DNA of 64,000 nt from Spirochaetae bacterium HGW-Spirochaetae-4 (lineage in GTDB: Bacteria > Spirochaetota > Spirochaetia > Sphaerochaetales > Sphaerochaetaceae). A model generated the notes under the pieces. The model was not told the origin of the DNA and did not search any database. It saw only the letters and a program-made list of their open reading frames with translations. Positions 1 to 16,602 of the stretch are shown here, piece after piece (the first letter of the stretch is position 1; every line of letters starts with the position of its first letter). Location of the stretch: positions 28,215-92,214 of the forward strand of contig PGXU01000005.1 in the NCBI GenBank assembly GCA_002839335.1, in the 5' to 3' direction. A program made the position numbers and the translations under genes.

Positions 1-1165
1 AAATCTTCTCAACATCATCGACATACAGTTTCTTGAAATTCCCCAAATGTGTCCTTTCACCGAACAAGGCCTTCTCGGCCATGAACCGCAGCTTGTCTTT
101 ACCGATTTTAGCTTCGGTCAGACTTGTGGGCATACCAATCCGTCTATAGAAATTCTGGAGACGATTGATCGCTTCCTCCACAATACTATCCTTGTCCTCC
201 AACGGGAAACTGACATCCCAAACCCGAATTGCATATTGCACAAAACGATCGATATTGTCTTTGTACACATACTTCATCCACGCTGGGAACAAGATCGCCA
301 AGCCTGCGCCATGGGCGATATCATACAGGGCACTCAGTTCATGCTCGATATCGTGTGTTGCCCAATCTCCAAGTCTTCCCCTATCAAGAAGGTTGTTGTG
401 TGCAATAGTTCCTGTCCACATAAGTTCAGCCCTATACACATACTCGGACGGGTTCTTCAGGGCCAACGGAGCGTTGGCAATGATATTGCGCATGCAGCTT
501 TCAAGCAGACGATCGGACAAATCGTTGCCACCGACCATAGTGAAATATCTTTCCTGCAAGTGGGCAAGAATATCGGTTGCACCGCAAGCTGTTTGATAAT
601 TGGGCAATGAATAGTTGGTCTCAGGGTCCATAACAGCGAATTTCGGGATAACGGTTTCAGAATTGATCGCTCTCTTCAACCCTTCTTTTTCATCGGTTAT
701 CACCGAAGCAGTCGAGCTTTCAGATCCTGCGGCAGGAATGGTCAACACAACACCAACCGGCAGCGCATCCTGGATTTCATATTGCGCTCTCATGAAATAA
801 TCATTCCAAACATCTTCATTGCCCTGCAATTTCGTACCAAATGCGATGGCTTTGGCAGAATCGATTACACTGCCGCCCCCGACCGCAAGAACCAAGTCGA
901 TCTTTTCCTTCTTACATAGGGCAATACCTTGACGCACCAGGGACAGATGCGGATTTGGGACAACGCCGCCCAGGTATATTACTTCCAACCCGGCTTCCTT
1001 CAGAGAGTTTGTGACCGCATCGTATACCCCGTTCGCTTTTATGGAACCTCCACCAAAATGGAAAAGAACCCTTTTCCCCCATTTGGCCGATTCCTGGCCG
1101 ACATCTGCTATCGATTCTTTACCAAAGATAATCCTTGTTGGATTCCAATAGGAAAAATTTAACAT
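1..1165 (-). CDS. Iron-containing (group III) alcohol dehydrogenase; 3' end cut by the window edge
   Basis: Absent from the ORF track because it runs off the window. My translation from ATG 1165..1163 (RBS taaggagg upstream) reads MLNFSYWNPTRIIFGKESIADVG...DLVLAVGGGSVIDSAKAIA...THDIEHELSALYDIAHGAGLAILFPAWM. These are the GGGS and His-rich metal motifs of Fe-ADHs (YqhD/BdhA/PduQ-like). It directly follows deoC in the BMC operon. Confidence 0.85.
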   Translation of the reverse strand, partial: MLNFSYWNPTRIIFGKESIADVGQESAKWGKRVLFHFGGGSIKANGVYDAVTNSLKEAGLEVIYLGGVVPNPHLSLVRQGIALCKKEKIDLVLAVGGGSVIDSAKAIAFGTKLQGNEDVWNDYFMRAQYEIQDALPVGVVLTIPAAGSESSTASVITDEKEGLKRAINSETVIPKFAVMDPETNYSLPNYQTACGATDILAHLQERYFTMVGGNDLSDRLLESCMRNIIANAPLALKNPSEYVYRAELMWTGTIAHNNLLDRGRLGDWATHDIEHELSALYDIAHGAGLAILFPAWMKYVYKDNIDRFVQYAIRVWDVSFPLEDKDSIVEEAINRLQNFYRRIGMPTSLTEAKIGKDKLRFMAEKALFGERTHLGNFKKLYVDDVEKI

Positions 1166-1211
1166 TGATAGTCCTCCTTACATGATTATCAGCCTTCTAA
1201 ACCAAAAGGGA

Positions 1212-2015
1212 TCAATACCCTCCAGAACCTTTCATGCCACTCACCACGGCAACGCCTGATCCCGTTCCGATACGGGTTGCACCAGCTTCCAACATGGCCA
1301 ACGCTGTGGCAAAGTCCCTGATACCCCCACTAGCCTTTACTTCAATTTTTTCGCCAACAGTCTGTTTCATCAACAGTACATCGGCAACTGTCGCTCCGCC
1401 GCCCCCGAAACCGGTACTTGTCTTAACGAAATCGGCACCTGCACGTTTGGAGATTTGGCACGCAATTATCTTTTCCTCATCGGTAAGCATCGAGGTCTCG
1501 AGAATCACCTTGAGTATGGTGGAACTACGAGTCGCCCTCCTGACCGATAGGATATCCTCTTCAACATACTTGTAGTCTCCGGCCCTCAATTTCCCCACAG
1601 CGAGCACCATATCGATTTCCGAAGCTCCATGCTCGATAGCCTCTCGTGTTTCGAAGGCTTTGCTCCTGCTTGTCATTGCCCCAAGCGGAAAGCCAACGAC
1701 AGAGCAAACGAGAACTTTGGTTCCTTGTAGTTTCTTTGCCACATACGACACCCAAGAAGAATTGACACACACCGATTTGAATTGGTATTCGATCGCTTCC
1801 TTGCAGAGTTTATCAAACTCCTCCGCCCTGGATTCAGGCTTCAATAATGTATGGTCTATATATTTTGCCATGTCCCGTGGAGTCGTTATATTGATTTTTG
1901 CAGCGGCGATTTTCATTGCGTCTTCTTTCGCTGTAGCCCCGAGTCCTTCTTTGGAACTTTCAATTTTCTTTAAAACTTCTTTTGTGATTAATTCAACCAG
2001 TGAATTTTGATCCAT
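1212..2015 (-). CDS. deoC: Deoxyribose-phosphate aldolase (DeoC/DERA family, class I) with a ~45-aa N-terminal extension
   Basis: ORF 1212..2018. The likely ATG at 2015 overlaps the rpiB stop (TGATG), with RBS gaggggga upstream. The core has DERA hallmarks: YIDHTLLKPE, SVCVNS, ADFVKTSTGF (Schiff-base Lys) and KASGGIR. The extension MDQNSLVELITKEVLKKIESSKEGLG... is absent from ordinary ~220-aa DERAs. Confidence 0.9.
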   Translation of the reverse strand: MDQNSLVELITKEVLKKIESSKEGLGATAKEDAMKIAAAKINITTPRDMAKYIDHTLLKPESRAEEFDKLCKEAIEYQFKSVCVNSSWVSYVAKKLQGTKVLVCSVVGFPLGAMTSRSKAFETREAIEHGASEIDMVLAVGKLRAGDYKYVEEDILSVRRATRSSTILKVILETSMLTDEEKIIACQISKRAGADFVKTSTGFGGGGATVADVLLMKQTVGEKIEVKASGGIRDFATALAMLEAGATRIGTGSGVAVVSGMKGSGGY

Positions 2016-2470
2016 CAATTCAATCCCCCTCTCTCTATGGACATCATCTTATTGATTCTTACTATATGCCGTCCACCTTCGAACGGAGTTTCTAGCCAAG
2101 TTCTTACCATTAAGCTCAATTCGTCGGCTTTATGCAATGGACCTCCCAATGTAAGCACATTCGCATTGTTATGCATCCTGCTGTTTACAACCGTTTTCAA
2201 ATCATAACACAATGCCGCACGTATACCCCTAACCTTATTGCAAACCATTGACGAACCGATTCCCGCCCCGTCCAACATAATTCCCCTATCACATGATTCG
2301 GTGACAACTTTCCTACATACTGCATATGCGATATCCGGATAATCAACTTTTTCGTTCATGTCGCAACCAACATCAACCACGTTGTACCCGAGATTCTCCA
2401 GGAACGTCTTCAGAAAGACCTTTTGCTGATATGCCCCATGATCACAACCCAAAGCAACGTTTTTAACCAT
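2015..2470 (-). CDS. rpiB: RpiB/LacA/LacB-family sugar-phosphate isomerase
   Basis: ORF 2015..2476; ATG at 2470 gives MVKNVALGCDHGAY... The protein is typical RpiB: GCDHxG, MLDGAGIGSSMVCNKVRGIRAAL, NVLTLGG. Start choice (2470 vs 2476 GTG) is uncertain. Confidence 0.85.
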   Translation of the reverse strand: MVKNVALGCDHGAYQQKVFLKTFLENLGYNVVDVGCDMNEKVDYPDIAYAVCRKVVTESCDRGIMLDGAGIGSSMVCNKVRGIRAALCYDLKTVVNSRMHNNANVLTLGGPLHKADELSLMVRTWLETPFEGGRHIVRINKMMSIERGGLN

Positions 2471-2482
2471 ATCCACTATTTC

Positions 2483-2755
2483 CTAATCCTTCGATACCGA
2501 ATCTACAATCCCACCAATTATTGTCCTGATTGTCAAGAGATCCTTATCACCGAGAATATCCCTTGCCGAACCGCCTTCATCAAAAACCAAAACCAAGTCT
2601 CCAATACCCGACTGCACCCCATCGAGAGCAAGGAAAGATTTCCCCGATGGTGTCGCGTTTGGATCTACCGGTTGAACTATGAGAATCTTCTTCCCTTTGT
2701 AATGTTCGTGTTTTATGGTACAGGTCACCGAACCAAGGACTTTAGCAAGAATCAT
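2483..2755 (-). CDS. BMC vertex pentamer protein (BMC-P, EutN/CcmL family), paralog 1
   Basis: MILAKVLGSVTCTIKHEHYKGKKILIVQPVDP...ALDGVQSGIGDLVLV...GGIVDSV is the EutN/CcmL pattern. ATG at 2755 has RBS gggagag and sits 1 nt after the stop of the upstream gene; the longer ORF-track start (2779) would overlap that gene. Confidence 0.85.
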   Translation of the reverse strand: MILAKVLGSVTCTIKHEHYKGKKILIVQPVDPNATPSGKSFLALDGVQSGIGDLVLVFDEGGSARDILGDKDLLTIRTIIGGIVDSVSKD

Positions 2756-2756
2756 A

Positions 2757-3026
2757 CTACTCTCCCGTTGATATCCCATCTACAATACCGATGATAGTGG
2801 CGTCACAGGGATTGAACCAATTGTCCAAAGCTTGAGCCGCCTCTTTGCCACCTTCGAACATCACTGTATCGCCTTCTCCGGCTTGTACGGTGTCCATAGC
2901 GGCAATCGGCTTTCCCACCGGTTGTCCGTTCTCATCAATCGGCTGAAGCAACAACAACTTCTTCCTATCGAAACATTCCAATTTCTTCGTACTGACTACC
3001 GTTCCGATTACCCGACCTAATTTCAC
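2757..3026 (-). CDS. BMC vertex pentamer protein (BMC-P), paralog 2
   Basis: MKLGRVIGTVVSTKKLECFDRKKLLLLQPIDENG...AMDTVQAGEGDTVMF...IGIVDGI is EutN/CcmL-like. GTG start with RBS agaggag 7 nt upstream. Confidence 0.85.
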   Translation of the reverse strand: MKLGRVIGTVVSTKKLECFDRKKLLLLQPIDENGQPVGKPIAAMDTVQAGEGDTVMFEGGKEAAQALDNWFNPCDATIIGIVDGISTGE

Positions 3027-3045
3027 TCAATGACTCCTCTTACAT

Positions 3046-4476
3046 CTAGATGATCCTAAAATAATCAACCAAAGTGCATCGTCTCTCCCTAGTGAAGGTA
3101 CGAGCTCTTGTAAGCCCTTCTCCTGTGGGACTGGCAATTGTGAACGAAGTATACCCCGCACCACCATTTCCCAAACCCGCATAACAAGGACCATTCTTGA
3201 CAAATAGCGAACAATTCATCTGTCTAGCCATCTTGCTCAGCTTTTCCACATTCAACGAATGCATGATCGCGGTGTGCCTGAACCCATGTTCACATTGGAC
3301 TGCCAAGTCTATGCATTGGTCAACATTTTCCATTCTCACAATCGGCAAGAAGGGCATCAATTGTTCAGTCCATACCAATGGGTTTCCCGCATCGACATCA
3401 CAAATGAGCAACCTGGTACTTTCAGGAACCGTAACACCAATCAAGGAAGCGAGAAAACTTGGTGATTTCCCCACGTATTCCCTCTTTACCACACCCTCGC
3501 TATTCATCATTCCGGGTACTTCAATTATTTGGTCCAACAACGATTTAGCCTGCTGGTCGGATAGCAAGTAGGCACCGACCTTCTGCATCTCTCCAATCAA
3601 CTCGTTCGCAACACTCTTGACAACGAGTACTTCCTTTTCACAGATACAAACCAAATTGTTGTCGAAACTAGCACCATCAACTATATCTTTCGCAGCTTTT
3701 TGTATCTTTGCGGTTTCATCAACCACGCAAGGAGGATTACCCGGCCCTGCGGCTATCACCTTTTTTCCGCTATTCATTGCAGCCTTGACTACTCCAGGCC
3801 CCCCAGTAACAACCAAGAGGGAAATCTTTTGATGCCCCATCATCTCATTTGCGGATTCAATTGTTGGCTGGGCCAGTGAAACCAAAAGATTCCTTGGTCC
3901 TCCAACTCGCTCGATAGCCGCATTGAGTACCTCAATCGCAAAGCAGGAAACATTTTTCGCTCCCGGGTGAGGATTGAACACAACCGAATTGCCACCACTT
4001 ATCATGCTGATACCGTTATTGATAATAGTGGCAGTAGGGTTTGTTACGGGAGTAATAGATCCGATGACACCATAAGGGGCTCTTTCCACGAGGGAAAGTC
4101 CGTGTTCATCGGAGTAAGCCGAAGTCTCGACATCCTCGACCCCGGGGGTCTTTTTCGCTGCCAGTATGTTCTTCGCGATTTTATCGGCAACATTTCCTCG
4201 ACCACTTTCCTGAACAGCCATCTCGGCAAATTCTTGGGCATGATCCATGGCGGTTTCCCGCATGGCTTGGACTATCTCTTTCCTCTTTTCAAGCGGAAGC
4301 CCAACAAGGTGCCGTTGAGCTTCATAGGCAGCCTTTACGGCCAGATCCATAGTTGGAAATATACCGCTCGCATATTGGGATGGTGCGATATGATCCACTC
4401 CTACAGAGGAAGCGCTATACTCCAATACCAGTTTCTCAACCAATGTACGAACTGTATCTTCAATACTTTGACTCAC
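3046..4476 (-). CDS. CoA-acylating aldehyde dehydrogenase (EutE/PduP family)
   Basis: The 476-aa protein has SITPVTNPTAT, VVFNPHPGAK, GGPGVV, NPPCVVDETA and catalytic-Cys context NNLVCICEKE, typical of BMC-associated acylating AldDH. The amphipathic N-terminus is SIEDTVRTLVEKLVLEY. GTG start with RBS aaggaga. Confidence 0.9.
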   Translation of the reverse strand: MSQSIEDTVRTLVEKLVLEYSASSVGVDHIAPSQYASGIFPTMDLAVKAAYEAQRHLVGLPLEKRKEIVQAMRETAMDHAQEFAEMAVQESGRGNVADKIAKNILAAKKTPGVEDVETSAYSDEHGLSLVERAPYGVIGSITPVTNPTATIINNGISMISGGNSVVFNPHPGAKNVSCFAIEVLNAAIERVGGPRNLLVSLAQPTIESANEMMGHQKISLLVVTGGPGVVKAAMNSGKKVIAAGPGNPPCVVDETAKIQKAAKDIVDGASFDNNLVCICEKEVLVVKSVANELIGEMQKVGAYLLSDQQAKSLLDQIIEVPGMMNSEGVVKREYVGKSPSFLASLIGVTVPESTRLLICDVDAGNPLVWTEQLMPFLPIVRMENVDQCIDLAVQCEHGFRHTAIMHSLNVEKLSKMARQMNCSLFVKNGPCYAGLGNGGAGYTSFTIASPTGEGLTRARTFTRERRCTLVDYFRII

Positions 4477-4501
4477 AAGTACATCTCCTTGGTTCTATGG
4501 T

Positions 4502-4789
4502 TCACCCGAGGTACAATGTCTTATTCCCCGAGTACACTCTATCGACAATCCCAACTATCAGCGTATCAACCGGCAAGTTCTCCGTCTCGAATGTCCACCT
4601 GCATGAACTGCCTTGGCAAACGAGTACCATGTCTCCTGGTCGGGAATCGATAATATCCAGAGCCACCAGATAGCTTCCGCTACCCTTGGCTTCCGAATCA
4701 CAAATCTCGACTAGCATAAATCTCGAAGAGATATAGCTTTCGTCACGAGTATTGCTAACAACCGAACCGCATACCCTAGCAAAATTCAT
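4502..4789 (-). CDS. BMC vertex pentamer protein (BMC-P), paralog 3 (most divergent)
   Basis: MNFARVCGSVVSNTRDESYISSRFMLVEICD...ALDIIDSRPGDMVLV...VGIVDRV is EutN/CcmL-like. Confidence 0.8.
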   Translation of the reverse strand: MNFARVCGSVVSNTRDESYISSRFMLVEICDSEAKGSGSYLVALDIIDSRPGDMVLVCQGSSCRWTFETENLPVDTLIVGIVDRVYSGNKTLYLG

Positions 4790-4792
4790 AGA

Positions 4793-5101
4793 CTAATCCT
4801 CAAGATTTTGATCCTTCCGATAGATCATGTTCCCATACAAGTCAATATTGTCGACAATAGCTGCGATAGTTGCATCGGAAGGCTTCCCCTTGGAAACAGA
4901 AGTCAGCCGTGCACTGGAACCTGTGACATAAAATACAATTTCACCAATATTGGCTCCAACAGAGTCCAGCGCAACCACAAAATCATTGACTCCAGCAAGG
5001 CTCGGAATAGATATTTTTTCCACTAGGAGCAACTTGAGTGATTCAAGCTGTTCAGCTTTTGCGGTAGACACCACCGTTCCAACAACTCTCCCCAACACCA
5101 T
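4793..5101 (-). CDS. BMC vertex pentamer protein (BMC-P), paralog 4
   Basis: The internal ATG at 5101 (RBS ggaggaa 9 nt upstream) gives MVLGRVVGTVVSTAKAEQLESLKLLLVEKIS...ALDSVGANIGEIVFY...AAIVDNI. The upstream extension to 5152 has no RBS support. Confidence 0.85.
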   Translation of the reverse strand: MVLGRVVGTVVSTAKAEQLESLKLLLVEKISIPSLAGVNDFVVALDSVGANIGEIVFYVTGSSARLTSVSKGKPSDATIAAIVDNIDLYGNMIYRKDQNLED

Positions 5102-5175
5102 TGTAGTATTCCTCCAGATTGAGACACATGCGTCCCGAAGGACGCATTTCATCTGACATCATAGACGCAAATCCA

Positions 5176-5478
5176 TTACTTCTTCTTCTCGGGCCGACCC
5201 AATGGCAATACCTCATCGACCATCGTATGTGGTCGTGGAATTATGTGCGAGGACACTATTTCACCAACCTTCTGGGCGGCTACAGTTCCCGCCTCTATCG
5301 CAGCCCTGACAGCGGCGACATCACCTCGGACAATAGCGGTCACATAACCGCCTCCAATCTGTTGATATCCAACCAGCTGAACTTTCGCAGCCTTGCTCAT
5401 AGCATCCGATGCTTCGACCATCGCAGCGAAGCCCCTTGTCTCGATCATACCCAGTGCGCTATCAAAAATTTCCGCCAT
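5176..5478 (-). CDS. BMC shell hexamer protein (BMC-H, PduA/EutM/CcmK-like)
   Basis: [64 protein letters not shown]...IIPRPH is the canonical PF00936-type sequence. RBS aaggagaa. Confidence 0.93.
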
Positions 5479-5507
5479 ACCATGTTCTCCTTTTAAGTTA
5501 TTCCTTG

Positions 5508-6146
5508 TTATTCTTTGCTCTTATCACTCAAAACCCTACCAGACAACGAGGCAATCCTACTCTCAACAATCTCTTTGCTGATAAGAACCTCTGCTTCATT
5601 CCCCGAGATATAGACCCTGCCGTAACTTCCATAACCAACCACCTCGACAATATTGATATGGGAGGCCTTTTCTGCTTCATTAGCGGCATAGAACGCATAT
5701 GCAGCGGGCTGCAACTCAAGGACATACAGGGTATCTCCCCGAAGTACCATATTTCCGTGTCGAACTTTATTGATCAACTGGCAATGGTGATCACTCATAT
5801 TCTTGATTAGTTGACTGGTCAGGATTTGTGGCTTTATTCGATCTTCCTCTTTCAAGCCCAAGGCTTTAAGTACCGCTTCACCTGCCTGCCTGACATCTGC
5901 CTGGCTATCGGAATGAACTTCCAACAACCCGAACAATCGTTCTACAATTTGAATCCCTGGCTTGACATCAGTCGCTTTGAGAGCAATGTCGGTTACTCGG
6001 TTTATCTCGATTCCCGGTGATATTTCCAAGATGGCGCATGCTTGCTCCGCTACAGGGAAATATCCTTTTGAGATTGTTGAAATAAACGACGCCATTTGCG
6101 ATTGAAGCGAATCCAGAAAAACATAAGTTCTAAGATCTACCCCCAT
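5508..6146 (-). CDS. Tandem-BMC-domain shell protein (BMC-T), CcmP/CsoS1D-like
   Basis: ATG at 6146 (RBS aagggg) gives [21 protein letters not shown]...[20 protein letters not shown]...[23 protein letters not shown]...[10 protein letters not shown]. This closely resembles my recollection of cyanobacterial CcmP ([43 protein letters not shown]). It is the first gene of the operon. Confidence 0.8.
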
Positions 6147-6216
6147 ACTTTTACCCCTTTTCAATTTTTAACTTCAAAAGTTACCTGTTCCATTCGATTG
6201 CACTAGATGTACCACC

Positions 6217-6246
6217 ATTATACCATCCAAAAAACACCAAAGTCAA
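6217..6246 (-). promoter_or_regulatory. Sigma70-type promoter of the BMC operon
   Basis: The minus strand reads TTGACT-N18-(tgg)TATAAT, a 5/6 -35 plus a perfect -10 with extended TGn. It lies ~70 nt upstream of the BMC-T start. Confidence 0.65.
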
Positions 6247-6321
6247 TTTTTATTGTAACATATATAACATTTTTCACATTTTTTGATAATTAACAAACAT
6301 TATCATGAAAAAAATATCATT

Positions 6322-7077
6322 CTAGTCCATATAGTATCCACCATTTATATTGACAACCTCTCCATTTATGAAGGAAGCATCATCCGAGGATAAGAACATC
6401 ATGAGATTGGACATGTCCTTCACAGTTCCAAGTCGCTTCACTGGAATCTTCTCTGCCATCGCATCTTTCTTCGCATCGTCCCAGTAGTACATCATCTTTG
6501 TCATGACTGCATGTGGTGCGATCGCGTTGCAGGTAATCCCGAACGGACCCAATTGCCGTGCAACCGATCTGGTTATGGTAATTACCGCTCCTTTCGAAGC
6601 GCCGTAAACGAACGTAGTCGAGTTATCCCCATTTTTTCCAGTGATCGAGGAAACATTTACAATACGTCCATATGATTGACGCTTCATGATTGGAGTTACT
6701 TCACGAATTGCGTATAGAATCCCCTTGATATTGATATCGATCGTCTTGTCGATCAAATCGTTGGTCGTTTCCTCTATTGTTGCATTCCGCAACAAGCCGG
6801 CATTGTTCACCAGGATATCCAATCGACCATACTTTCCAATGGTTTTTCCGATTGCATCGGCAACCTGGACATCGTCTGAAATGTCGCACTCGATAATCAA
6901 ATAATCGGAATTCTGCTCTTCCAGAAGAGTTCTCGTTTCCTCCAAACCTTGAACATCGATATCCACAACAACAACCCGAGCACCTTCCCTTGCCATATCG
7001 ACCGCCAGTTGCTGTCCCATTCCTTGCCCGCCGCCAGTAATAAAGGCAACCTTATCAACAAACCTATCAGGTCGCAT
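6322..7077 (-). CDS. Short-chain dehydrogenase/reductase (SDR, FabG-like)
   Basis: Contains TGGGQGMGQ (TGxxxGxG), NNAG and YGASKGA (YxxxK); 251 aa. Confidence 0.85.
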   Translation of the reverse strand: MRPDRFVDKVAFITGGGQGMGQQLAVDMAREGARVVVVDIDVQGLEETRTLLEEQNSDYLIIECDISDDVQVADAIGKTIGKYGRLDILVNNAGLLRNATIEETTNDLIDKTIDINIKGILYAIREVTPIMKRQSYGRIVNVSSITGKNGDNSTTFVYGASKGAVITITRSVARQLGPFGITCNAIAPHAVMTKMMYYWDDAKKDAMAEKIPVKRLGTVKDMSNLMMFLSSDDASFINGEVVNINGGYYMD

Positions 7078-7124
7078 ACGTTCCTCCTAAGTAAACAACA
7101 GTGTTATCCGACACTACCTACCTA

Positions 7125-7152
7125 ATTATAGTTAATTTTGTAACAATGTCAA
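7125..7152 (-). promoter_or_regulatory. Consensus sigma70 promoter upstream of the SDR gene
   Basis: The minus strand reads TTGACA-N16-TATAAT (both hexamers perfect), ~45 nt upstream of the ATG at 7077 (RBS aggagg). The spacer contains TGTTACAA, a deo-operator-like half-site. Confidence 0.7.
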
Positions 7153-7223
7153 TACCATTTTGTTAATTATATTTCATTTTAGCTAAACAGCAATAAAAAT
7201 TACCATTTTTTGTTAATATTTTG

Positions 7224-8741
7224 TCACTTTCTTTTCAATTTACTTCGATTATCCCACTGCAGGGATCTATTGACTGCTTCTCTCCACCCGTCGTACAGGC
7301 TTTCCCGTTGATCGACGCTTATCGTTGGCTCAAAAAGACGCTCGCGCTTCCAATGCCTACTCAATTCCTTCAGGTCACTCCAAAAGCCAATCCCCAGTCC
7401 TGCCAAGTATGCGGCTCCACGTGCAGCCATCTCCGAAACCACGGGACGTTCCACAGGGATACCTAGGATGTCAGACTGGAATTGCATCAGGAAGTCACTT
7501 TTCGAGGCACCGCCATCCACCCGTAAAGATTCGGGGGTGACTCGGGAGTCTTTCACCATCGCATCGACAACATCCCTCGTCTGATAGGCCATCGATTCCA
7601 AGGCTGCCCTGGCGATATGTTCCTGTGTAGTTCCGCGAGTTATGCCGATGAGGAGACCTCGCGCATACATATCCCAATACGGGGCACAAAGTCCCGTAAA
7701 TGCAGGAACCAGGTAAAGATCGCCGGTATCTGGAACTTTCTCGGCAAGCCGATCGCACATGGATGCGCTTTCAATTATTTTCAATCCGTCCCGCAACCAC
7801 TGCACAGCAGCACCACCAATAAAAATCACACCCTCGAATCCATACGAAGTCTTGCCATCGATATTCCAAAGCAAATCTGTGGTTAGCCCATGCTTGGAAG
7901 GAACAAAAGTCTCACCGATATTCATCATCAAGGCCAGAGCAGTACCATATGTATTCTTTGCCATTCCCTTTTCAAAACAGGTCTGCCCAAACGTAGCCGC
8001 ATGCTGGTCTCCAGCTGACCCGGAGATTGGAATTTCCTGTCCGAAAAAAACCTTGGCAGATGTTGTTGCCATATGCCCGCTATTCGGTTTCAATTCGGGG
8101 AGGATCGATGCGGGAATATCCAACATATCCAGCAACTCCTGGTCCCAAGCAAGATTGTGTACGTCAAGAAGCATTGTTCGCGAGGCATTGCTATAATCGG
8201 TTACATGGGAAGCCCCTCCACTCAGTTTCCAGATAAGATATGAATCTATTGTGCCCATGCACACACGATTCTCCCTGATTCGATCCATTATTCCGGGAAC
8301 ATTATCCAAAATCCATCGAATCTTTGTTCCAGAAAAATAGGCGTCCACCACGAGCCCGGTCTTCCTGCGGATCATTGGTTCATAACCCTTTTCTTTCAAG
8401 CTCTCGCAGATCTCCGCGCTCCTTCTACATTGCCAAACGATGGCGTTATAGTACGGTTCACCAGTAATCTTGTCCCATAATATTGTTGTTTCACGCTGGT
8501 TTGTTATTCCGATGCAGGCAATTTCCTCAATATTCGCTTTGCCTTCAGCCAAGATCTCACGGGTACAATCCAGTACTGTTTCCCAATACTCCACAGGATT
8601 GTGTTCAACCCAACCAGGATGAGGATATATCTGTTTTATTTCATGATAAGCTGTCGAATGGACTTGACCCTCATGATCGAACAAGATGACTCGGGTTCCT
8701 GTGGTTCCTTGATCGATCGCCATCACATATTTCTTTTCCAT
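7224..8741 (-). CDS. glpK: Glycerol kinase (FGGY family)
   Basis: The ATG at 8741 (RBS gggagg) gives MEKKYVMAIDQGTTGTRVILFD...IYPHPGWVEHNP...GITNQRETTILWDK.TGEPYYNAIVWQCRR.AEIC...YFSGTKIRWILDNV. This is near-collinear with E. coli GlpK as I recall it. Confidence 0.85.
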   Translation of the reverse strand: MEKKYVMAIDQGTTGTRVILFDHEGQVHSTAYHEIKQIYPHPGWVEHNPVEYWETVLDCTREILAEGKANIEEIACIGITNQRETTILWDKITGEPYYNAIVWQCRRSAEICESLKEKGYEPMIRRKTGLVVDAYFSGTKIRWILDNVPGIMDRIRENRVCMGTIDSYLIWKLSGGASHVTDYSNASRTMLLDVHNLAWDQELLDMLDIPASILPELKPNSGHMATTSAKVFFGQEIPISGSAGDQHAATFGQTCFEKGMAKNTYGTALALMMNIGETFVPSKHGLTTDLLWNIDGKTSYGFEGVIFIGGAAVQWLRDGLKIIESASMCDRLAEKVPDTGDLYLVPAFTGLCAPYWDMYARGLLIGITRGTTQEHIARAALESMAYQTRDVVDAMVKDSRVTPESLRVDGGASKSDFLMQFQSDILGIPVERPVVSEMAARGAAYLAGLGIGFWSDLKELSRHWKRERLFEPTISVDQRESLYDGWREAVNRSLQWDNRSKLKRK

Positions 8742-8868
8742 CAATTCCTCCCGAATACAATCCAAAAATTTCCATCCATAGCATGAACAGGGCTTATGCC
8801 TACTAGAAAAAACGCGGATGTCGGCTTCTTACCAGCCCAGACACCCACGTTATAAAACTCATTCCCGC

Positions 8869-10257
8869 TTAAACTTTCTCGTATGCGATTTTTAGCATGT
8901 CACACAACATTTCCCACCTTCTTCCATGAGTCCCCAAAGTAAGGGTCTGGTGGTGGGTTCCGCCGTATCGCATCCAATTATCCATTGCACTCCTGATACC
9001 AGTATCTGGCTTGAAATGGAAATATGTCATTGGAACATTCTTATACTCGGGTGTATCGAGAATAGATCCGTTGCAAATCACCAGACGGTAATCAACATCA
9101 TCGAGAGGAGCCAAAGAGACCAGAGTCCCAGGTCCCGGTTGGGCGCTGAAGACTACTGTCGGCGGATTATCCAATCCTCCAATCTCCAGTTCCCTGTCAA
9201 TCAATTTGATTGGACGATCTTTTCGGGCAATTTTCCAGTTTCCTTCTCCCATATGGCTCATCAATGCGGAATCCTTCTCATAATCGAGAGAATACATTTC
9301 AGTAAAATGGGCATCGCCGACAAGGGTGTGACCTGCGCCTACCAGGGCAGCAGTATGCACATCGCCTTCATTTGAATACGCATAGCCTTTGGCCATGAGA
9401 TTTGAAGCAGCCAACATGTTGATCTGTTTGAATCGTCCATCTTCAGCGAAAACGCCAAAATTTGCACTGAATCCGTTGAAGCGATTCTCAATCAGGAACC
9501 GCTCGAAAGCCAATTGCATTCTCGCCGCATATTGATGTCTTTCAAGGGTCAATTTTGGATCAACTTGGAAATTCCTCTTGTCTTCAGCAATGCTTTCCGC
9601 AATCTGTTTGTCGGTCACTTCAAGCATCAGTTTGTATATATCACCAATACCTTCAAAAAAGACCTCTGGCCCAATCATCCGATAGAATTTCTCATCATTC
9701 CCAACAATATCTCCCATCCCTTTCATTCTACCGAAAACAGCCAAACGCATTTTCTTAAGGGCGTTGTGGGTCTGGGCCGCTTTCGCCCAATCGGTGAAAA
9801 ATTCCTTGAATGCGTCGCTTTTCCAATCCTCAGTTATTATTGCTGGTTTGATTCCTGCATGTAACAACATATTTGCGGTGTCTTGTGCTCCGTGGATACC
9901 TTGGTTCGTGGTCAACCTACTCCAGTCCCAGTCGGTAGTCACCACTGGCAATGGTTGGACATTTGCGAGCATCACAGGAAGCCTGTTCTCCTTCAATGCT
10001 CCTATCAACGTAAAGCCTGGACTATATAGAAGCATAATAATCATGATGCCATCATATCCACCGTTATTATATTCCGCGACAGTCTCTTCAATCTGGGTTC
10101 TGGTTTTTGCTGCTTTCTTGAAAGTGATATCGGCTCTATCAGAAAGTTTCCCAATTACCTCTCTAGCAAATTTTTCCTGTTGAGCAGTAATTTCCGGTTG
10201 CTTTTCATCGTAAAGTCCATGCATGATTCCCAATAGTCCAATTTTTGGCTTTTTCAT
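8869..10257 (-). CDS. L-arabinose isomerase-family sugar isomerase (AraA-like; substrate unknown)
   Basis: A 462-aa protein with AraA-like layout: N-terminal IGLLG...LYDE, then NEGDVHTAAL, SHMGEGN and GGTHHQTLTLG, matching the EGDWKTAAL / SHMLE / GGAHHTV blocks of AraA. It is shorter than E. coli AraA. Confidence 0.7.
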   Translation of the reverse strand: MKKPKIGLLGIMHGLYDEKQPEITAQQEKFAREVIGKLSDRADITFKKAAKTRTQIEETVAEYNNGGYDGIMIIMLLYSPGFTLIGALKENRLPVMLANVQPLPVVTTDWDWSRLTTNQGIHGAQDTANMLLHAGIKPAIITEDWKSDAFKEFFTDWAKAAQTHNALKKMRLAVFGRMKGMGDIVGNDEKFYRMIGPEVFFEGIGDIYKLMLEVTDKQIAESIAEDKRNFQVDPKLTLERHQYAARMQLAFERFLIENRFNGFSANFGVFAEDGRFKQINMLAASNLMAKGYAYSNEGDVHTAALVGAGHTLVGDAHFTEMYSLDYEKDSALMSHMGEGNWKIARKDRPIKLIDRELEIGGLDNPPTVVFSAQPGPGTLVSLAPLDDVDYRLVICNGSILDTPEYKNVPMTYFHFKPDTGIRSAMDNWMRYGGTHHQTLTLGTHGRRWEMLCDMLKIAYEKV

Positions 10258-10270
10258 AATCCTCTCCTTA

Positions 10271-11488
10271 TTAAGATTTCTTTTGTTCCGGGTATTTTGG
10301 AATGAATGGAATGACCGAATTGTTTATATCCGGTCCAAAGAATTTTAGAATCACCAAGTCGGTATCGCCAGTATTTTCGTACAAGACTCCCTTGCGAGCT
10401 TTGTCGTCGACAACCAGCAACTCATCTTTCCCGAAATTCTGCCCTTCGACCAATAGATCATCAGCCTTACCGCGACCTTTCCAAACAAGAATATTATAGA
10501 CTCCCATATCTTTGCTTAACACCTTCTTATGGGGTTTGACTACCAATTTTTTTCCACTGAAGCGGGTGGTATTATAGTAAATCCAGTATTCCTGACTCTC
10601 CTCGGTCGCCGTCTCTTCAATCAAGATTGGGGGAGTATGACGATTTTCATAGAAATACGGATCCCCATTGATGTCCCAATTGAGCTGGTCCAAAACAGCC
10701 TTCTCCTGTTTTTCTTGCACAACTTTCTTTTCCACATCCTTGAACAGCAACTCTTTGGAAATTTGCTTCCCCTCAACATTGGATTGGAAAACCGACATGA
10801 CATCCGAAGGTTCCTGCAATTCAATCGTTAGGGCAGAACCCGGAGCATGCAATACACCAGCTGGTAGATGGAAACCCTCGCCAGGAACGTTCAAATATGC
10901 CCTCGAATGCTGGAGTATCAATTCGCTATCCCACTCCTTGAGACAAGGCAGCAATATCTCATATTGCTTGTTCTGCTCCACAATATATGGATGCACACCG
11001 AAGAATGTCTCTGGATGTGGTCCCAAATCAACGCCTTCCGGATAATAGTACGCTTCTTCCTTCGAGGTAGCTCCAACTTTTGACGCTTCCTCTTGTGTTT
11101 GATGAAAATGGTAAAATATCCTTCCCTTGTAGTCATAGATCTTGGCAAGCCTGAGGAGGTTCTTGTGGTTTTTTGCATATTCAGCTCCCAAGATCTCCGT
11201 CTTTGCAGCCTGAACCGCATCCCGAAGCAAAATATCATGACCGGGGATATCCAACAGCGACAACCCTTCGTTTTCGAATTTCACCTCGTTGTCAACTTCT
11301 GTCTCCGAGCCCAACCACCTTTCACATATGAAACCCCGTTTACCCACAGGGTATTCATGTTCCTTCAGCCCCAACCGCTTTCCCGGTTCGAGAAATGTCC
11401 TGGCTACCCAGCTTGGTCGCATCCGCAACAAACCATCGTGGGTCTTCACTGCTTCCTTTACTATGCGAAAAATCTCTGATTGTTCCAT
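10271..11488 (-). CDS. Uncharacterised 405-aa protein, possibly a cupin/PMI-like sugar isomerase
   Basis: A long ORF co-directional with and tightly spaced between the isomerase and DUF4432 genes. The only hints are weak and by eye (ERWLGSETEV, a HAPGSAL-type His segment), suggesting type I phosphomannose-isomerase-like cupins. Function unassigned. Confidence 0.6.
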   Translation of the reverse strand: MEQSEIFRIVKEAVKTHDGLLRMRPSWVARTFLEPGKRLGLKEHEYPVGKRGFICERWLGSETEVDNEVKFENEGLSLLDIPGHDILLRDAVQAAKTEILGAEYAKNHKNLLRLAKIYDYKGRIFYHFHQTQEEASKVGATSKEEAYYYPEGVDLGPHPETFFGVHPYIVEQNKQYEILLPCLKEWDSELILQHSRAYLNVPGEGFHLPAGVLHAPGSALTIELQEPSDVMSVFQSNVEGKQISKELLFKDVEKKVVQEKQEKAVLDQLNWDINGDPYFYENRHTPPILIEETATEESQEYWIYYNTTRFSGKKLVVKPHKKVLSKDMGVYNILVWKGRGKADDLLVEGQNFGKDELLVVDDKARKGVLYENTGDTDLVILKFFGPDINNSVIPFIPKYPEQKKS

Positions 11489-11510
11489 TACAAACCTCCG
11501 TATAAGGTAC

Positions 11511-12605
11511 TTACGAGTTCCTCAATGACTTGGCATACACATCCAGTCCCTTAATCTTGTCGATTGAATCCAAAACTTCGAATTCGATTGTTACATTGTA
11601 CACTTCTTGTGGATCCAGCATCGGTAGGAGTTTGTTTTCACGTGCTTTTGCCCTACCTATCGGGTTGACTGTACCAGGTTCCAGACCACAAACATAACAG
11701 CCTTTCCCGGGCATTTTCCATTCGGTCAATTGTGGCAATTCATTACGATTGTAACGCAACATGATTGCCAGGGGGTTACCCTGAATATCTGGATTGACCA
11801 ATGCCACAAAAGTCTTGCCGTCGGATTCAGCGCCAACGGAATGGAAAAACACTTTTTCCTTATATCCTTGGATCGGCTTGGGATATTCAAAACACTCGGA
11901 AACACCATTGTCCACTTCCGACTGCTTATCTCGAGGCGTCGTAGTCTTGCTTGGGATTACAATTCTTGATTTCTCCGAAAGCAACGGGAACCCAAAATTG
12001 AAATGATACAACATCATAAGCGGTTGTGGCTCAAAACCACGGTTCTCAATCGCATCCTCAATACGTATCGTACTGGACCCAAGTCTTGTCGATATCGTTC
12101 GGGTCAAAGTCAAGTTTTCACCCATCACAAAGGCTTCTCGCATTCTTCCTGAAATCGAGATACTGTATTCGTCCCCAATCCACTTTTGAGAAACTGAAAC
12201 ATCTTCTGCCCCGGCGTTTCCTATCCGCCCATGGAGACCAAATGCATTTCCATTGTCTATGGAGGGTGCTCCACTATTGGTGATACCACATGTGGAAAGT
12301 AGTCCCCCAAAGAACGTCCTCAACCAATTCAACCCCGGCTCTTCATAATAACCAGGGGAAGTCATACCAGTCGCAGAGGTGAATTGCAGGGGAATACCCT
12401 TAAAGCTGCATCCATAGATATCCAAGGCTCTTCCAGGAATCACTTGAAATGCTAGGCCGCTTCCCGTATACACATCAACACCTTGAACGCCTGCTGCTTT
12501 TCCATCATTGAATACAAAAGGACTGGCACCAGCTATAGCCGATTCATCCGAAATATAGGCTCTAAGACCTTCCCTGGTCCAAATTTTTCCCAAATAGTCT
12601 GCCAT
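11511..12605 (-). CDS. Aldose-1-epimerase-fold protein (DUF4432 family)
   Basis: GLNWLRTFFGGLLSTCGITNSG, FGLHGRIGNAGAEDV and MMLYHFNFGFPLL match my recollection of DUF4432 / galactose-mutarotase-like proteins. Confidence 0.7.
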   Translation of the reverse strand: MADYLGKIWTREGLRAYISDESAIAGASPFVFNDGKAAGVQGVDVYTGSGLAFQVIPGRALDIYGCSFKGIPLQFTSATGMTSPGYYEEPGLNWLRTFFGGLLSTCGITNSGAPSIDNGNAFGLHGRIGNAGAEDVSVSQKWIGDEYSISISGRMREAFVMGENLTLTRTISTRLGSSTIRIEDAIENRGFEPQPLMMLYHFNFGFPLLSEKSRIVIPSKTTTPRDKQSEVDNGVSECFEYPKPIQGYKEKVFFHSVGAESDGKTFVALVNPDIQGNPLAIMLRYNRNELPQLTEWKMPGKGCYVCGLEPGTVNPIGRAKARENKLLPMLDPQEVYNVTIEFEVLDSIDKIKGLDVYAKSLRNS

Positions 12606-12627
12606 TGTCTTCTCCTTTTTGCATTAT

Positions 12628-13716
12628 TCAAGTTTCTGCTTGTTTGGATTTTTCCAGTGCCTTTTGGGCAAGGATCATAGATTCACGCACTTTTCTTTGG
12701 GCAGCGATCATCCGTACGACTTCATCCGCGGCGACACCAATTAGAATGACAAGCCCTAGTACTACTTGTTCCAATTGGGTCGACACACCTGCTACATTGA
12801 TCGCGTTGTATAAGACACGAACAATTGCCGTTCCAAGAATCACGCCTAGGATAGAGCCGTCCCCACCTCTCAGACTCACACCTCCAACAACACAACCGGC
12901 AATGGCATACAACTCATACATGTTTCCCATTGAAGAAGGCTGAACGGTGTTCAAATCGAGGGAAAATAGCAATCCCCCAAGTCCTGCAAGTGTTGAACTG
13001 ATTACGTAGGCAATTATCAAAACATTATCAGTGTGGATTCCACTGAACCGGGAAGCACATTCATTTCTTCCTGTAGCTTTTAGATGTTGCCCATATATTG
13101 TTTTATTTAAAACAATAGCCATCAGCACGGCTATAGCCAACAACAATATGAACGGCATTGGAATCGACCAATTGAGGATAAACTTGGGAGCCTGCCCATC
13201 TGTCCAGAAAGCTGAGGGGAGACGTCCACTTGCAAGAAACCGTACACTCTGGAATCCAGTCCCATACCCCTGTGTCCGATCGTCCATTAGATAACGTGCC
13301 AGGCCACGATATACGAACAGACCGCAAAGTGTCACAACGAAGGCTTGCATGTGAATCTTGGTAATGAGCAACCCATGAATCAATCCTATGGTTGCAGACA
13401 ACACGATGATAAAAATCAACACAACCCAAACAGGCCATTGCGCATGAACCATCAGATAGGCGGCAATCGACCCGATAAGTCCTACAACAGAGCCAATGGA
13501 CAGGTCGATGCCTCCTGTGATAACAACAAAGGCCGCCCCAAGGCTCAACAATCCAAAAAGGCCTGTCCAACGAAGAATATTCCTTATATTATATGAACTT
13601 AAAAATTGTGGATTGATTATTGCGGTAACCAATATAATCAGGGATAGTAGAAAAGTTATCCCTCCTATCCGCTTCATACTGCGAATGTACTCAATCATTC
13701 TGTTGTTTTTATTCAT
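12628..13716 (-). CDS. Sugar ABC transporter permease (RbsC/AraH-like)
   Basis: A 362-aa polytopic hydrophobic protein with GGIDLSIGSV and VVGGVSLRGG motifs. Its start overlaps the ATPase stop by 4 nt. Confidence 0.85.
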   Translation of the reverse strand: MNKNNRMIEYIRSMKRIGGITFLLSLIILVTAIINPQFLSSYNIRNILRWTGLFGLLSLGAAFVVITGGIDLSIGSVVGLIGSIAAYLMVHAQWPVWVVLIFIIVLSATIGLIHGLLITKIHMQAFVVTLCGLFVYRGLARYLMDDRTQGYGTGFQSVRFLASGRLPSAFWTDGQAPKFILNWSIPMPFILLLAIAVLMAIVLNKTIYGQHLKATGRNECASRFSGIHTDNVLIIAYVISSTLAGLGGLLFSLDLNTVQPSSMGNMYELYAIAGCVVGGVSLRGGDGSILGVILGTAIVRVLYNAINVAGVSTQLEQVVLGLVILIGVAADEVVRMIAAQRKVRESMILAQKALEKSKQAET

Positions 13717-15272: not shown

Positions 15273-15443
15273 ATCAACCACAATCAGCCCACCCTTCTTT
15301 GAGTCCAACAAACAGTTGAATAATTCGATAGTATTCGTAGTCGGTACCAATGCATCCGGTCTTTTAAAAACCGGTCAGAGTGAGCCCCGACCGGTTTCTA
15401 TACATCGAATTACATTCCTTCGCTCACGATTTGGCCTATGAAA

Positions 15444-16505
15444 CTATTTGGTTGCTTCAAGATACTTGTTACCATCGGAAAGCTGGGCCTTGTATTTTCC
15501 CCAAACTTCATCAATGTTTTGTCCGGTGATCTTTAGTGCCGGGACATCGATCAACTTGTCGGCGGGGATGGAAACCGCTTCACCGCGTGCTTTCTTCGCC
15601 AATATTTCTATGGTTCTGACAGCATAGGTAAAGGGATCCTGGCCGAGAGCCGCATACGCGTTTCCGTCTTTAACTGCCTGCAACAACTCATTCTCCATGT
15701 CAAACCCGATTATCTTCATCTTTCCAAGAAGTCCAGCATCGGCAACGGCACTGATAATCGCTGGAGAACTATAACTCCACATGCCAACCATCAAATCCAT
15801 TTGCGGGAACTTCAAGATCGCATCTTCAGAGTTGGACTTGGCTTTGGACTGATCGCCACCATCTGTTCTCGTTTCAAGCAAGGTCCATTTTCCTCCACCC
15901 AATTTCAGGTTTGGAGTGTTGGGAGTCATTTTGCCGGGATATTGTGCAACGTACGGTTCGCCATTCAATTCATCGATCATTCCCTGACGTCGTTCGATTG
16001 CATTCTGTGCATCCAGGCGTCCAACAATAATCATGAACTCGCCACCATTCGGAAGCACTTCCGTAACAGCTTGTCCAGCCATTCTTCCTGCAGCATAGTT
16101 GCTCATACCGACGTATGCCAATCTATTGCTATTCGGTGCATCGCTGTCAAACATCACCATTGGTACAGTTTCCATAATCTCATTCAAAAATGGTGTTACA
16201 TTATCCGGATCGGTTACACTGATACCAATACCATCCACACCCCTGGTGACCAACGACTCGATGAATCGCTTTTGCTCTTCAGGAAGACCATTTGGAGGAA
16301 GCAAGAATTCAACATCGATATCCAGATCCTTCTTCAGAATCTCAACTGCCGCCGCAGAATATGTCCAAAATTCGTAGGGTCCATTGGTGATAAATCCAAT
16401 CAATGGCTTTTCAGCGACAGCCTCTTTCTGTGCCCCTGCAGAAACTGTAAAAACAGATACAACAAGAAGCAAAACCATGAAAACTACAAACAATCTTGAC
16501 TTCAT
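15444..16505 (-). CDS. Periplasmic sugar-binding protein (RbsB-type) of the ABC importer
   Basis: Has an N-terminal signal peptide (MKSRLFVVFMVLLLVVSVFTVSAGA) and a periplasmic-binding-protein type I pattern. It is the first gene of the transporter operon. Confidence 0.8.
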   Translation of the reverse strand: MKSRLFVVFMVLLLVVSVFTVSAGAQKEAVAEKPLIGFITNGPYEFWTYSAAAVEILKKDLDIDVEFLLPPNGLPEEQKRFIESLVTRGVDGIGISVTDPDNVTPFLNEIMETVPMVMFDSDAPNSNRLAYVGMSNYAAGRMAGQAVTEVLPNGGEFMIIVGRLDAQNAIERRQGMIDELNGEPYVAQYPGKMTPNTPNLKLGGGKWTLLETRTDGGDQSKAKSNSEDAILKFPQMDLMVGMWSYSSPAIISAVADAGLLGKMKIIGFDMENELLQAVKDGNAYAALGQDPFTYAVRTIEILAKKARGEAVSIPADKLIDVPALKITGQNIDEVWGKYKAQLSDGNKYLEATK

Positions 16506-16573
16506 ACGTACAACCTCCTTATCGGTTTACTCAGTCATGTTAGAAACCGTCACACGATCTGTGACATATGTTC

Positions 16574-16602
16574 ATTATCAATCAAGGAAATACCGTTGTC
16601 AA
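16574..16602 (-). promoter_or_regulatory. Sigma70-type promoter of the ABC transporter operon
   Basis: The minus strand reads TTGACA-N17-GATAAT, ~70 nt upstream of the ATG at 16505. Confidence 0.6.

Follow-up and report, generated by a model that had tools for sequence, protein, structure and literature searches.

Bacterial microcompartments (BMC) of the sugar-phosphate utilization (SPU) class were reportedly first noted by Axen et al. in 2014. In the catalogue of Sutter et al. 2021, the type SPU2 comprises 53 loci, mostly from Bacteroidetes and Spirochaetes, whose enzymes are only an aldehyde dehydrogenase (AldDH), an aldolase of PF01791 and a protein of PF02502, rarely joined by an alcohol dehydrogenase (ADH), a phosphotransacylase (PTAC) or TPI. 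Their shell consists of one or two BMC-H, a BMC-P triplet with one extra BMC-P, a CcmP-like BMC-T(dp) and a BMC-T(s); the AldDH bears an N-terminal encapsulation peptide (EP), PduS occurs in about one quarter of the loci, and a few loci are split. Here we describe the SPU2 locus at the beginning of a stretch of 64,000 nucleotides (the window) from Spirochaetae bacterium HGW-Spirochaetae-4 (contig PGXU01000005.1, positions 28,215 to 92,214). This is a known, already catalogued SPU2 locus, neither a new class nor a new member; what is new is its apparent wiring to a neighboring sugar-import cluster. We consider it probable, judging from gene content, conserved residues and promoter motifs, that the locus encodes an SPU2-type metabolosome which would use a deoxyribose-5-phosphate-type substrate and be co-regulated with the adjacent sugar cluster.

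Dwyer, Sutter and Kerfeld 2024 purified the deoxyribose-phosphate aldolase (DERA) of an SPU6 locus. According to the accessible part of their article (PMC11585597), the enzyme is active on deoxyribose-5-phosphate in vitro with a Km of about 0.1, a value given there without units. The authors also report that the RpiB-like protein of the locus is essentially inactive on ribose-5-phosphate and forms a complex with DERA, and that an aspartate replaces the catalytic cysteine in all SPU ribose-5-phosphate isomerases (RPI). A 2025 preprint describes shell self-assembly for SPU-like loci of Asgard archaea (PMC12747264). The first-pass annotation of the present stretch had called the class uncharacterized, with no demonstrated substrate, phenotype or shell. 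These two studies take away the part of that statement which concerns enzyme activity and shell formation; the part on physiology stands, as no native substrate, inducer or phenotype for SPU is reported in the searchable literature. Literature searches on Sphaerochaeta and microcompartments gave nothing relevant. SPU is among the most widespread microcompartment types, and the idea that it serves the scavenging of DNA rests on enzyme names and one in vitro assay.

The ORF (open reading frame) listing and profile searches of the window reveal ten consecutive co-directional genes at positions 1-6146 of the minus strand, the strand on which all features of the locus and of the sugar cluster given below lie. 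In the order of transcription they encode a BMC-T(dp), a BMC-H, two BMC-P, a CoA-acylating AldDH, two more BMC-P, an RpiB-like protein, a DeoC-type aldolase (DERA) and an iron-dependent ADH (Fe-ADH). As first proposed, the ten genes stand behind one near-consensus promoter, a sigma-70-like element at 6246-6217 (TTGACT, 18-nt spacer, TG-TATAAT; 11/12 positions). The gaps between them, previously put at 0-30 nt, turned out to measure from -4 to about 74 nt: BMC-H and the first BMC-P lie 23 or 74 nt apart according to the start chosen for the latter, DERA and Fe-ADH lie 46 nt apart, and the stop of the RpiB-like gene overlaps the DERA start (ATGA). All ten ORFs are intact and keep their catalytic and pore motifs. 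An exact look-up of the DERA sequence found the locus identical in six metagenome contigs, each extending 10 kb to both sides; the match began at the ATG start, one codon after TTG, and a query starting at the TTG gave no match. Across seven independent assemblies, the ORFs of the operon are identical or near-identical.

The shell genes begin with the CcmP-like, double-stacking BMC-T(dp) (5508-6146), which scores 288 bits with NF053796 (CcmP of NCBIfam), aligns over its full length with the CcmP structures 4HT5 and 5LSR at about 60% identity (E 3e-71) and keeps the VERLFG pore/gate motif of CcmP. Its score with the Pfam BMC model is marginal (23.8 vs. a threshold of 24.5). The BMC-H (5176-5478; PF00936, 102 bits) is the sole hexamer gene of the locus. 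The four BMC-P paralogues, all matching PF03319, are 28-44% identical to one another and lie at 4793-5101 (83.9 bits; the ORF reaches 5152, and gene callers start at 5101), 4502-4789 (95 aa, 84 bits; an orthologue of the catalogued CVV46_07475), 2757-3026 (92.5 bits) and 2483-2755 (79.8 bits). The assignment of the shell ORFs to the BMC and EutN families holds for BMC-H and the four BMC-P, while that of BMC-T(dp) is carried by the CcmP model. With BMC-H and all four BMC-P at most 3.7 kb from the AldDH gene, the region qualifies as a BMC locus, and a phmmer comparison between the shell proteins and every ORF of the window showed no further BMC/EutN ORF in the 64 kb.

A scan of GTDB genomes showed that the DERA is 99% identical to that of the metagenome-assembled genome HGW-Spirochaetae-2, a Sphaerochaeta relative (contig PGXW01000015.1). 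The other genes shared with that contig are 94-99% identical, and one hypothetical protein past the left edge of the window is 82% identical. In the supplementary trees of Sutter et al. 2021, CVV46_07475 / A0A2N1SNG6 of HGW-Spirochaetae-2 is entered as bmcType=SPU2 (main), clade P_kermit_spu2like. The earlier assignment of this DeoC and RpiB locus to the SPU class is borne out and can be narrowed, the fit to SPU2 being gene for gene apart from BMC-T(s) and the orthologous locus being catalogued as SPU2. The DeoC-type aldolase, the CoA-acylating AldDH, the adjoining Asp-type RpiB-like gene and the four BMC-P place it in SPU; the enzyme set, an N-terminal helix on AldDH, the CcmP-like BMC-T(dp) and the catalogue entry of the near-identical locus place it in SPU2. 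The PduT-like BMC-T(s) of that type was found neither in the 64-kb window nor in the 10 kb past its left edge, and may lie elsewhere in the genome.

The signature enzyme is the DERA (1212-2015), which exceeds the 117-bit cut-off of TIGR00126 with 277 bits and whose catalytic domain is about 62% identical to those of solved DERAs. Alignment to these structures shows that the motifs bearing the catalytic Asp, the Schiff-base Lys and the second Lys (EIDMV, FVKTSTGF, EVKASGG) and those of the phosphate site are intact. The Schiff-base lysine on which the earlier reading depended is thus in place (FVKTSTGF), and the proposal that the aldolase generates the aldehyde is strengthened by the equivalog-level score and the complete Asp/Lys/Lys set. 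The catalytic domain is preceded by an extension of about 47 residues, an amphipathic helix followed by a variable linker, whose first ~18 residues (MDQNxL[IV]ExITxEVMxxL) show conservation across phyla, Spirochaetota, Bacteroidota and Chlorobi among them. This pattern is that of a putative encapsulation peptide.

The RpiB/LacAB-family protein (2015-2470; PF02502, 161 bits) has Asp in place of the catalytic Cys66 and Ala in place of Thr68 (GIMLDGAGIG vs. GIVICGTGLG of 3HE8). The resulting D-G/A-A-G signature is common to all 39 BMC-linked RpiB-like homologues extracted, while two RpiB genes of the housekeeping type, present in these loci but unlinked, retain C-G-S-G. With only about 12 nt between the preceding stop and its start, the protein lacks an N-terminal extension. 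Judging from these substitutions, the protein probably serves DERA as a partner without isomerase activity. The CoA-acylating AldDH (3046-4476; PRK15398, 663 bits) is about 52% identical to the BMC AldDH 5JFL (E 2e-139) and keeps the catalytic-Cys motif SFDNNLVCICEKE; like DERA, it carries an N-terminal amphipathic helix (IEDTVRTLVEKLVLEY), with a hydrophobic moment of 0.62. The last gene of the operon encodes a YqhD/BdhA-like Fe-ADH (1-1165; PF00465, 159 bits, and PF25137), for which PRK15138 is the best NCBIfam model with 295 bits and the EutG model gives only 84 bits; no extension resembling an encapsulation peptide was seen on it.

The first-pass annotation let the operon run off the left edge of the window. 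This is true insofar as the edge cuts the Fe-ADH gene, 388 of whose 393 codons are in the window; in the six metagenome contigs only the last five codons and the stop lie beyond it. At 9 nt past the Fe-ADH stop lies the end of a convergent gene for an aldo-keto reductase, with a NUDIX gene after it, and the BMC operon therefore ends at Fe-ADH. The statement that the window has no phosphotransacylase was correct, and the leftward extension gave the same picture: PduL/Pta, ackA, PduS and BMC-T(s) are all missing from the 10 kb past the left edge in the extended contigs. About 2 kb past that edge (L001:14033-14707) there is a second, extension-less DeoC, 51% identical to the BMC DERA, which overlaps the gene of a 384-aa thymidine-kinase-like protein at the latter's start. 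This DeoC has glutamate in place of the Schiff-base lysine (VETSTGF) in each of the seven independent assemblies, which points to either a pseudo-enzyme or a changed function. In both cases the BMC DERA would be the sole competent DERA seen in the neighborhood.

The earlier description stopped at position 6246 and overlooked a 13-kb sugar cluster directly upstream, whose genes (6322-19129) are all co-directional with the BMC operon, so that every gene from 1 to 19129 lies on the minus strand. Next to the BMC promoter stands a short-chain dehydrogenase/reductase (SDR) gene (6322-7077) with its own promoter (7152-7125, 12/12). It is preceded by a GlpK-type FGGY kinase (7224-8741; TIGR01311, 683 bits vs. 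a cut-off of 590) and an L-arabinose-isomerase-like aldose-ketose isomerase (8869-10257). The latter has the N-terminal, central and C-terminal domains of AraA and matches AraA structures at E 1e-31, its score with the AraA equivalog being 172 bits vs. a cut-off of 622. Further upstream are a conserved 405-aa protein with no Pfam family (10271-11488), a DUF4432, aldose-1-epimerase-like protein (11511-12605; PF14486, 317 bits), which matches 3TY1 ('hypothetical aldose 1-epimerase') and on whose family the literature offered nothing useful, and a ribose-type sugar ABC importer identified by profile searches: permease (12628-13716), ATPase (13713-15350) and sugar-binding protein (15444-16505), the last matching no NCBIfam equivalog. 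The cluster is headed by a Zn-dependent ADH of the polyol/threonine-dehydrogenase type (Zn-ADH; 17159-18196, by profile search) and a DeoR-family regulator (18323-19129; PF08220 HTH_DeoR and PF00455 DeoRC). LsrF/LsrK-type AI-2, fucose-type and inositol-type pathways were considered as the identity of the cluster and rejected, as the family scores do not fit. Between the Zn-ADH and binding-protein genes, 650 bp (16506-17158) without an ORF, partly GC-rich, give no Rfam match at the gathering threshold and contain no remnant of the class II aldolase that a relative has at this position.

The 405-aa protein has more than 2,000 homologues, with 55-80% identity across Spirochaetia, Anaerolineae and Myxococcota-like bins, and no sequence match in the PDB. 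Its AlphaFold2 model, built with 33 homologues (pLDDT 82, pTM 0.84), is predicted to have a type I phosphomannose-isomerase (PMI) fold, Foldseek matching it to PMI structures at E 1e-11 and TM 0.5-0.7. Members of the family always occur in sugar clusters beside a Zn-ADH gene, usually together with an AP_endonuc_2 or AraA-like isomerase gene, and it looks like an unclassified family of sugar or sugar-phosphate isomerases. Distant PMI-fold homologues are found in clusters without any DeoC.

The promoters provide the first link between the two gene groups. On the minus strand, the promoter matches that score highest are those before the SDR gene (12/12), the binding-protein gene (16602-16574, 11/12) and the BMC operon (11/12); that of Zn-ADH (18258-18230, 10/12) comes fourth. 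The operator of E. coli DeoR is the 16-bp palindrome TGTTAGAA-TTCTAACA (PMC5326754). A palindrome with one mismatch to it, TGTTACAATTCTAACA, lies upstream of the DeoR-family gene (19254-19269), another with three mismatches, TGTTATATTTTTAACA, lies at the Zn-ADH promoter (18212-18227), and a third of the class TGTTN8AACA, TGTTATTTTTCAAACA, lies upstream of the transporter promoter (16745-16760). Eight TGTTN8AACA palindromes occur vs. 1.1 expected, and three of them precede the regulator, Zn-ADH and transporter genes. A motif search also showed three TGTTA-type half-sites directly upstream of the BMC promoter (6253-60, 6262-69 and 6288-95) and one half-site, TGTTACAA, between the -35 and -10 elements of the SDR promoter (7138-7145). 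TGTTACAA occurs exactly three times in the 64 kb: beside the BMC -35 element, within the SDR promoter and in the palindrome of the regulator. Of 23 TGTTANWW half-sites in the window, 12 fall inside the 1,085 bp of BMC and sugar-cluster promoter regions (3.1 +/- 1.7 in dinucleotide shuffles, 0 of 2,000 reaching 12), a count to be read with the caution that the motif was partly defined on these same regions. We infer that the BMC operon and the adjacent DeoR-headed sugar cluster may form one regulon.

The second link comes from relatives. Some 25 loci of Spirochaetota and Bacteroidales have the same gene order, (H) Tdp H P P AldDH P P RPI DERA. The relative L099, on a 159-kb contig, has the entire 19-kb arrangement from Zn-ADH/DeoR to Fe-ADH, with proteins 43-88% identical, the SDR gene abutting that of T(dp), and half-sites in the corresponding intergenic regions. 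L096 and L098 keep the arrangement up to the start of T(dp), where both contigs end; in L096 a perfect palindrome, TGTTACTATAGTAACA, lies between the regulator and transporter genes, and half-sites are present at the SDR and BMC promoters. L097, on a 1.47-Mb contig, has an orthologous sugar cluster (binding protein 82%, AraA-like 85%, PMI-fold 77%, kinase 65% and SDR 61% identical) with neither shell genes nor AldDH. A plain 226-aa DeoC, which keeps the lysine and has no extension, is located between its SDR and transporter genes, and an Fe-ADH gene follows the AraA-like one. L089, whose DERA is 68% identical, has lost the ABC transporter by deletion, as well as the shell, AldDH and every BMC-P gene, and its AraA-like and kinase genes are in fragments. 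Of T(dp) a C-terminal stub of 98 aa remains at 7311-7607, an ORF at 1237-1869 fuses a class II aldolase fragment to the C-terminus of an ABC permease, and RPI and DERA survive, the targeting helix of the latter without its hydrophobic face.

The loss in L089 raises the question of whether the present locus, with a single BMC-H and without BMC-T(s), PduS or PTAC, could itself be a remnant, decaying or incomplete, that has ceased to form compartments. A demonstrably decayed relative and the absence of the BMC-T(s) expected of SPU2 speak for this. We regard it as very improbable: none of the ten ORFs is broken, their catalytic and pore motifs are kept, they are identical or nearly so in seven independent assemblies, L099 keeps the gene set at 43-88% identity, and the promoter is near-consensus. 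Minimal sets of BMC-H and BMC-P genes, with or without BMC-T, form shells in other systems.

The metabolosome proposed here would work as follows. BMC-H would form the facets and the four BMC-P the vertices of a shell, in which the gated CcmP-like BMC-T(dp) would provide a large pore, and the N-terminal amphipathic helices of DERA and AldDH would direct both enzymes into the interior. The RpiB-like protein, its catalytic Cys and Thr being lost, would serve as the binding partner of DERA and not as a ribose-5-phosphate isomerase. 2-Deoxyribose-5-phosphate, or a very close 2-deoxy sugar phosphate, would enter the shell and, by homology to the SPU6 enzyme, DERA would split deoxyribose-5-phosphate into glyceraldehyde-3-phosphate and acetaldehyde. 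The confined acetaldehyde would be oxidized to acetyl-CoA with reduction of NAD+ to NADH; since there is no PTAC, acetyl-CoA and CoA would have to cross the shell, plausibly via the T(dp) pore. The YqhD-like Fe-ADH, which lacks a targeting helix, is probably cytosolic or shell-associated and may reduce acetaldehyde to ethanol for redox balance or for detoxification of leaked aldehyde. The sugar cluster, with its importer, mutarotase-like protein, two isomerases, kinase, SDR and Zn-ADH, would feed the compartment, its terminal module, free 2-deoxyribose being the simplest candidate for the imported sugar. That an imported free sugar feeds the compartment is suggested by the shared half-sites, the recurring 19-kb order, the shell-less L097 and the joint loss in L089. 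Tentatively, and with somewhat less than even confidence, we propose that SPU2 in Sphaerochaeta-like spirochaetes is the optional terminal module in the use of an imported free sugar by a DeoR-regulated pathway, this sugar being 2-deoxyribose or a rarer sugar or polyol, and does not serve DNA salvage.

Several observations weigh against the metabolosome proposed here and its coupling to the sugar cluster, in addition to the partly circular definition of the half-site motif. Encapsulation, shell formation and substrate at this locus are all deduced from sequence, and the BMC-T(s) described for SPU2 is absent from locus and window. The best NCBIfam model of the regulator is that of E. coli DeoR (PRK10681) with 163 bits, under the cut-off of 244, and the operator motif was found in neither L089 nor L097. 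The score of the kinase is that of a true glycerol kinase and not of a known deoxyribokinase. A 2-deoxy aldose is neither made nor used by aldose-ketose isomerization, which leaves the AraA-like and PMI-like proteins without a role; for free 2-deoxyribose, import, mutarotation and a kinase would be enough, so that two isomerases and two dehydrogenases go unexplained. The flanks of ten SPU2 loci from Bacteroidales hold TetR and unrelated housekeeping genes and no sugar cluster, and 13 other spirochaete SPU2 loci adjoin different sugar genes. The adjacency is limited to one Sphaerochaetaceae-like family, and shared ancestry therefore explains part of it. Association with this sugar cluster as a general trait of SPU2 was rejected on the same grounds, namely the unrelated flanks in Bacteroidales and the different sugar genes in other spirochaetes.

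The published SPU hypothesis is a feed from DNA or deoxynucleosides, in which nucleoside phosphorylase and phosphopentomutase yield deoxyribose-5-phosphate; the sugar cluster would then be a syntenic neighbor only. We consider this less likely than an imported sugar, although it deserves serious attention. In L089 the RPI-DERA pair directly adjoins genes for a thymidine-kinase-like protein, pyrimidine-nucleoside phosphorylase, a Bmp-type nucleoside ABC transporter and purine nucleoside phosphorylase, and here the second DeoC-like gene and the thymidine-kinase-like gene lie 2-3 kb past the left edge. Together, the nucleoside genes of L089 and the thymidine-kinase-like gene near this locus keep DNA salvage a live rival. 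The resemblance of regulator and operator to those of E. coli DeoR, whose regulon is that of nucleoside catabolism, points the same way; the operator half-sites, however, are common to the BMC and sugar promoters. Neither nucleoside phosphorylase nor phosphopentomutase was found in this locus or among the 25 commonest flank Pfam families of the 13 spirochaete SPU2 loci. The neighboring second DeoC is without the Schiff-base lysine, and the shell-less L097 has its DeoC within the sugar cluster itself.

The census of those 13 flanks by Pfam family gave 14 SDR, seven Rpe-like and seven aldose epimerase genes, together with sugar-binding proteins, SorC/IclR regulators, AP_endonuc_2, class II aldolase and FGGY genes. 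In L091, L092 and L093 the DERA gene is followed by ribulose-phosphate-3-epimerase-like, aldose 1-epimerase and AP_endonuc_2 genes, two SDR genes lie upstream, and a class II aldolase, an FGGY kinase, a SorC-type regulator and an ABC importer are in the vicinity. This is a recurrent second sugar context for SPU2, which the published scheme does not discuss.

The surplus of isomerases may also be taken to mean that the substrate is a different one, a sugar phosphate produced by the adjacent isomerase, kinase and dehydrogenase set on which the Asp-type RpiB-like protein would act as an isomerase. Examples are a deoxy-hexose phosphate, giving acetaldehyde and erythrose-4-phosphate, or a pentose phosphate, giving glycolaldehyde. 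The Cys-to-Asp and Thr-to-Ala exchanges, strict in 39 of 39 homologues, look like selection and not decay; spirochaete SPU2 loci are typically followed by Rpe-like epimerase and mutarotase genes and flanked by SDR genes; and the two isomerases here are indeed more than a deoxyribose route calls for. We nevertheless hold such a substrate to be unlikely. DERA chemistry requires a 2-deoxy donor carbon, and the aldolase is at DeoC equivalog level (277 vs. 117 bits) with catalytic and phosphate-site motifs intact. The sole SPU DERA assayed (PMC11585597) acts on deoxyribose-5-phosphate, and its RPI partner is inactive. A 2-deoxyribose-5-phosphate-type substrate remains our preferred assumption.

The rest of the window is made up of housekeeping genes near the replication origin (dnaX, recR, gyrBA, dnaA, dnaN and recF). 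Two copies of TGTTTCACGTGAAACA, which we take to be the canonical parS centromere sequence, lie at 43613-43628 and 43669-43684, upstream of a ParA-like gene (42517-43314) near gyrBA and dnaA. Five tRNA genes and the signal recognition particle RNA gene stand in a row at 21359-22036, and a 'Plastid-psbI-rps4' match of Rfam at 21745-21797, antisense to a tRNA, is almost certainly spurious. The G+C content is 42-47% in the BMC and sugar region (1-19300), 51-55% at 20000-40000 and 43-49% in the origin region at 40-52 kb. The low value of the first of these may point to horizontal acquisition, without being decisive.

The context of the locus offers experimental handles: a candidate repressor with recognizable operators, a dedicated binding protein and natural comparison loci. 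With loci that have the shell, lack it, or have lost shell and transporter together, the physiological role of SPU2 becomes directly testable. If the imported-sugar proposal is true, the relative with a naked DeoC and Fe-ADH would form with this locus a natural pair with and without shell, from which one could learn what the shell adds to a DERA pathway.

Among described systems the closest is SPU2 itself, with which the locus shares AldDH, the PF01791 and PF02502 enzymes, four BMC-P, one BMC-H, a CcmP-like T(dp), the lack of a PTAC and a spirochaete host. Unlike other SPU2 loci, it has no BMC-T(s) or PduS, and the second BMC-H that usually stands before T(dp) in relatives is missing; an Fe-ADH after DERA is found, among SPU2 relatives, in this sub-lineage only. 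With the SPU6 locus of Chloroflexi bacterium GWB2_54_36 it has in common an extended DERA with Asp/Lys/Lys, an Asp-type RpiB-like protein and adjacent RPI and DERA genes. SPU6 differs in the C-terminal EP of its AldDH, a DERA extension of about 70 residues, an N-terminal EP on RPI, a GntR/UTRA regulator, and BMC-H and T(dp) of other clades, whereas here RPI has no extension and the regulator is of the DeoR type.

More distant systems share the general design. As in EUT and PDU compartments (EutE/PduP, EutG/PduQ, EutD/PduL), an aldehyde would be made within the shell, an EP-targeted acylating AldDH would oxidize it, and an Fe-ADH would serve redox balance. Unlike in those, a class I aldolase, which needs no cofactor and acts on a sugar phosphate, takes the role of signature enzyme; a PTAC is missing, the YqhD-like ADH bears no EP, and the T(dp) is of the carboxysome type. 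The resemblance to the deo regulon of E. coli lies in a DeoR-family repressor, a near-identical 16-bp palindrome, operators spread over the locus and a regulated DeoC. The E. coli regulon has deoxyribose-5-phosphate as its inducer and deoCABD as its genes, while here the regulator scores under the equivalog cut-off, and the cluster consists of importer, isomerases, kinase, dehydrogenases and BMC genes in place of deoA/B/D. The fucose/rhamnose pathway with its PVM and GRM5 compartments, in which an isomerase, an FGGY kinase and an aldolase lead to lactaldehyde for Fe-ADH and AldDH and the DeoR-family regulator is FucR, resembles the 19-kb region in overall architecture: importer, mutarotase-like protein, aldose-ketose isomerase, FGGY kinase, aldehyde-releasing aldolase, Fe-ADH and a regulator of the DeoR family. 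The likeness is one of design only: their aldolase is a class II FucA/RhaD enzyme, and here the aldolase is a class I enzyme of the DERA type and the kinase is of the GlpK type.

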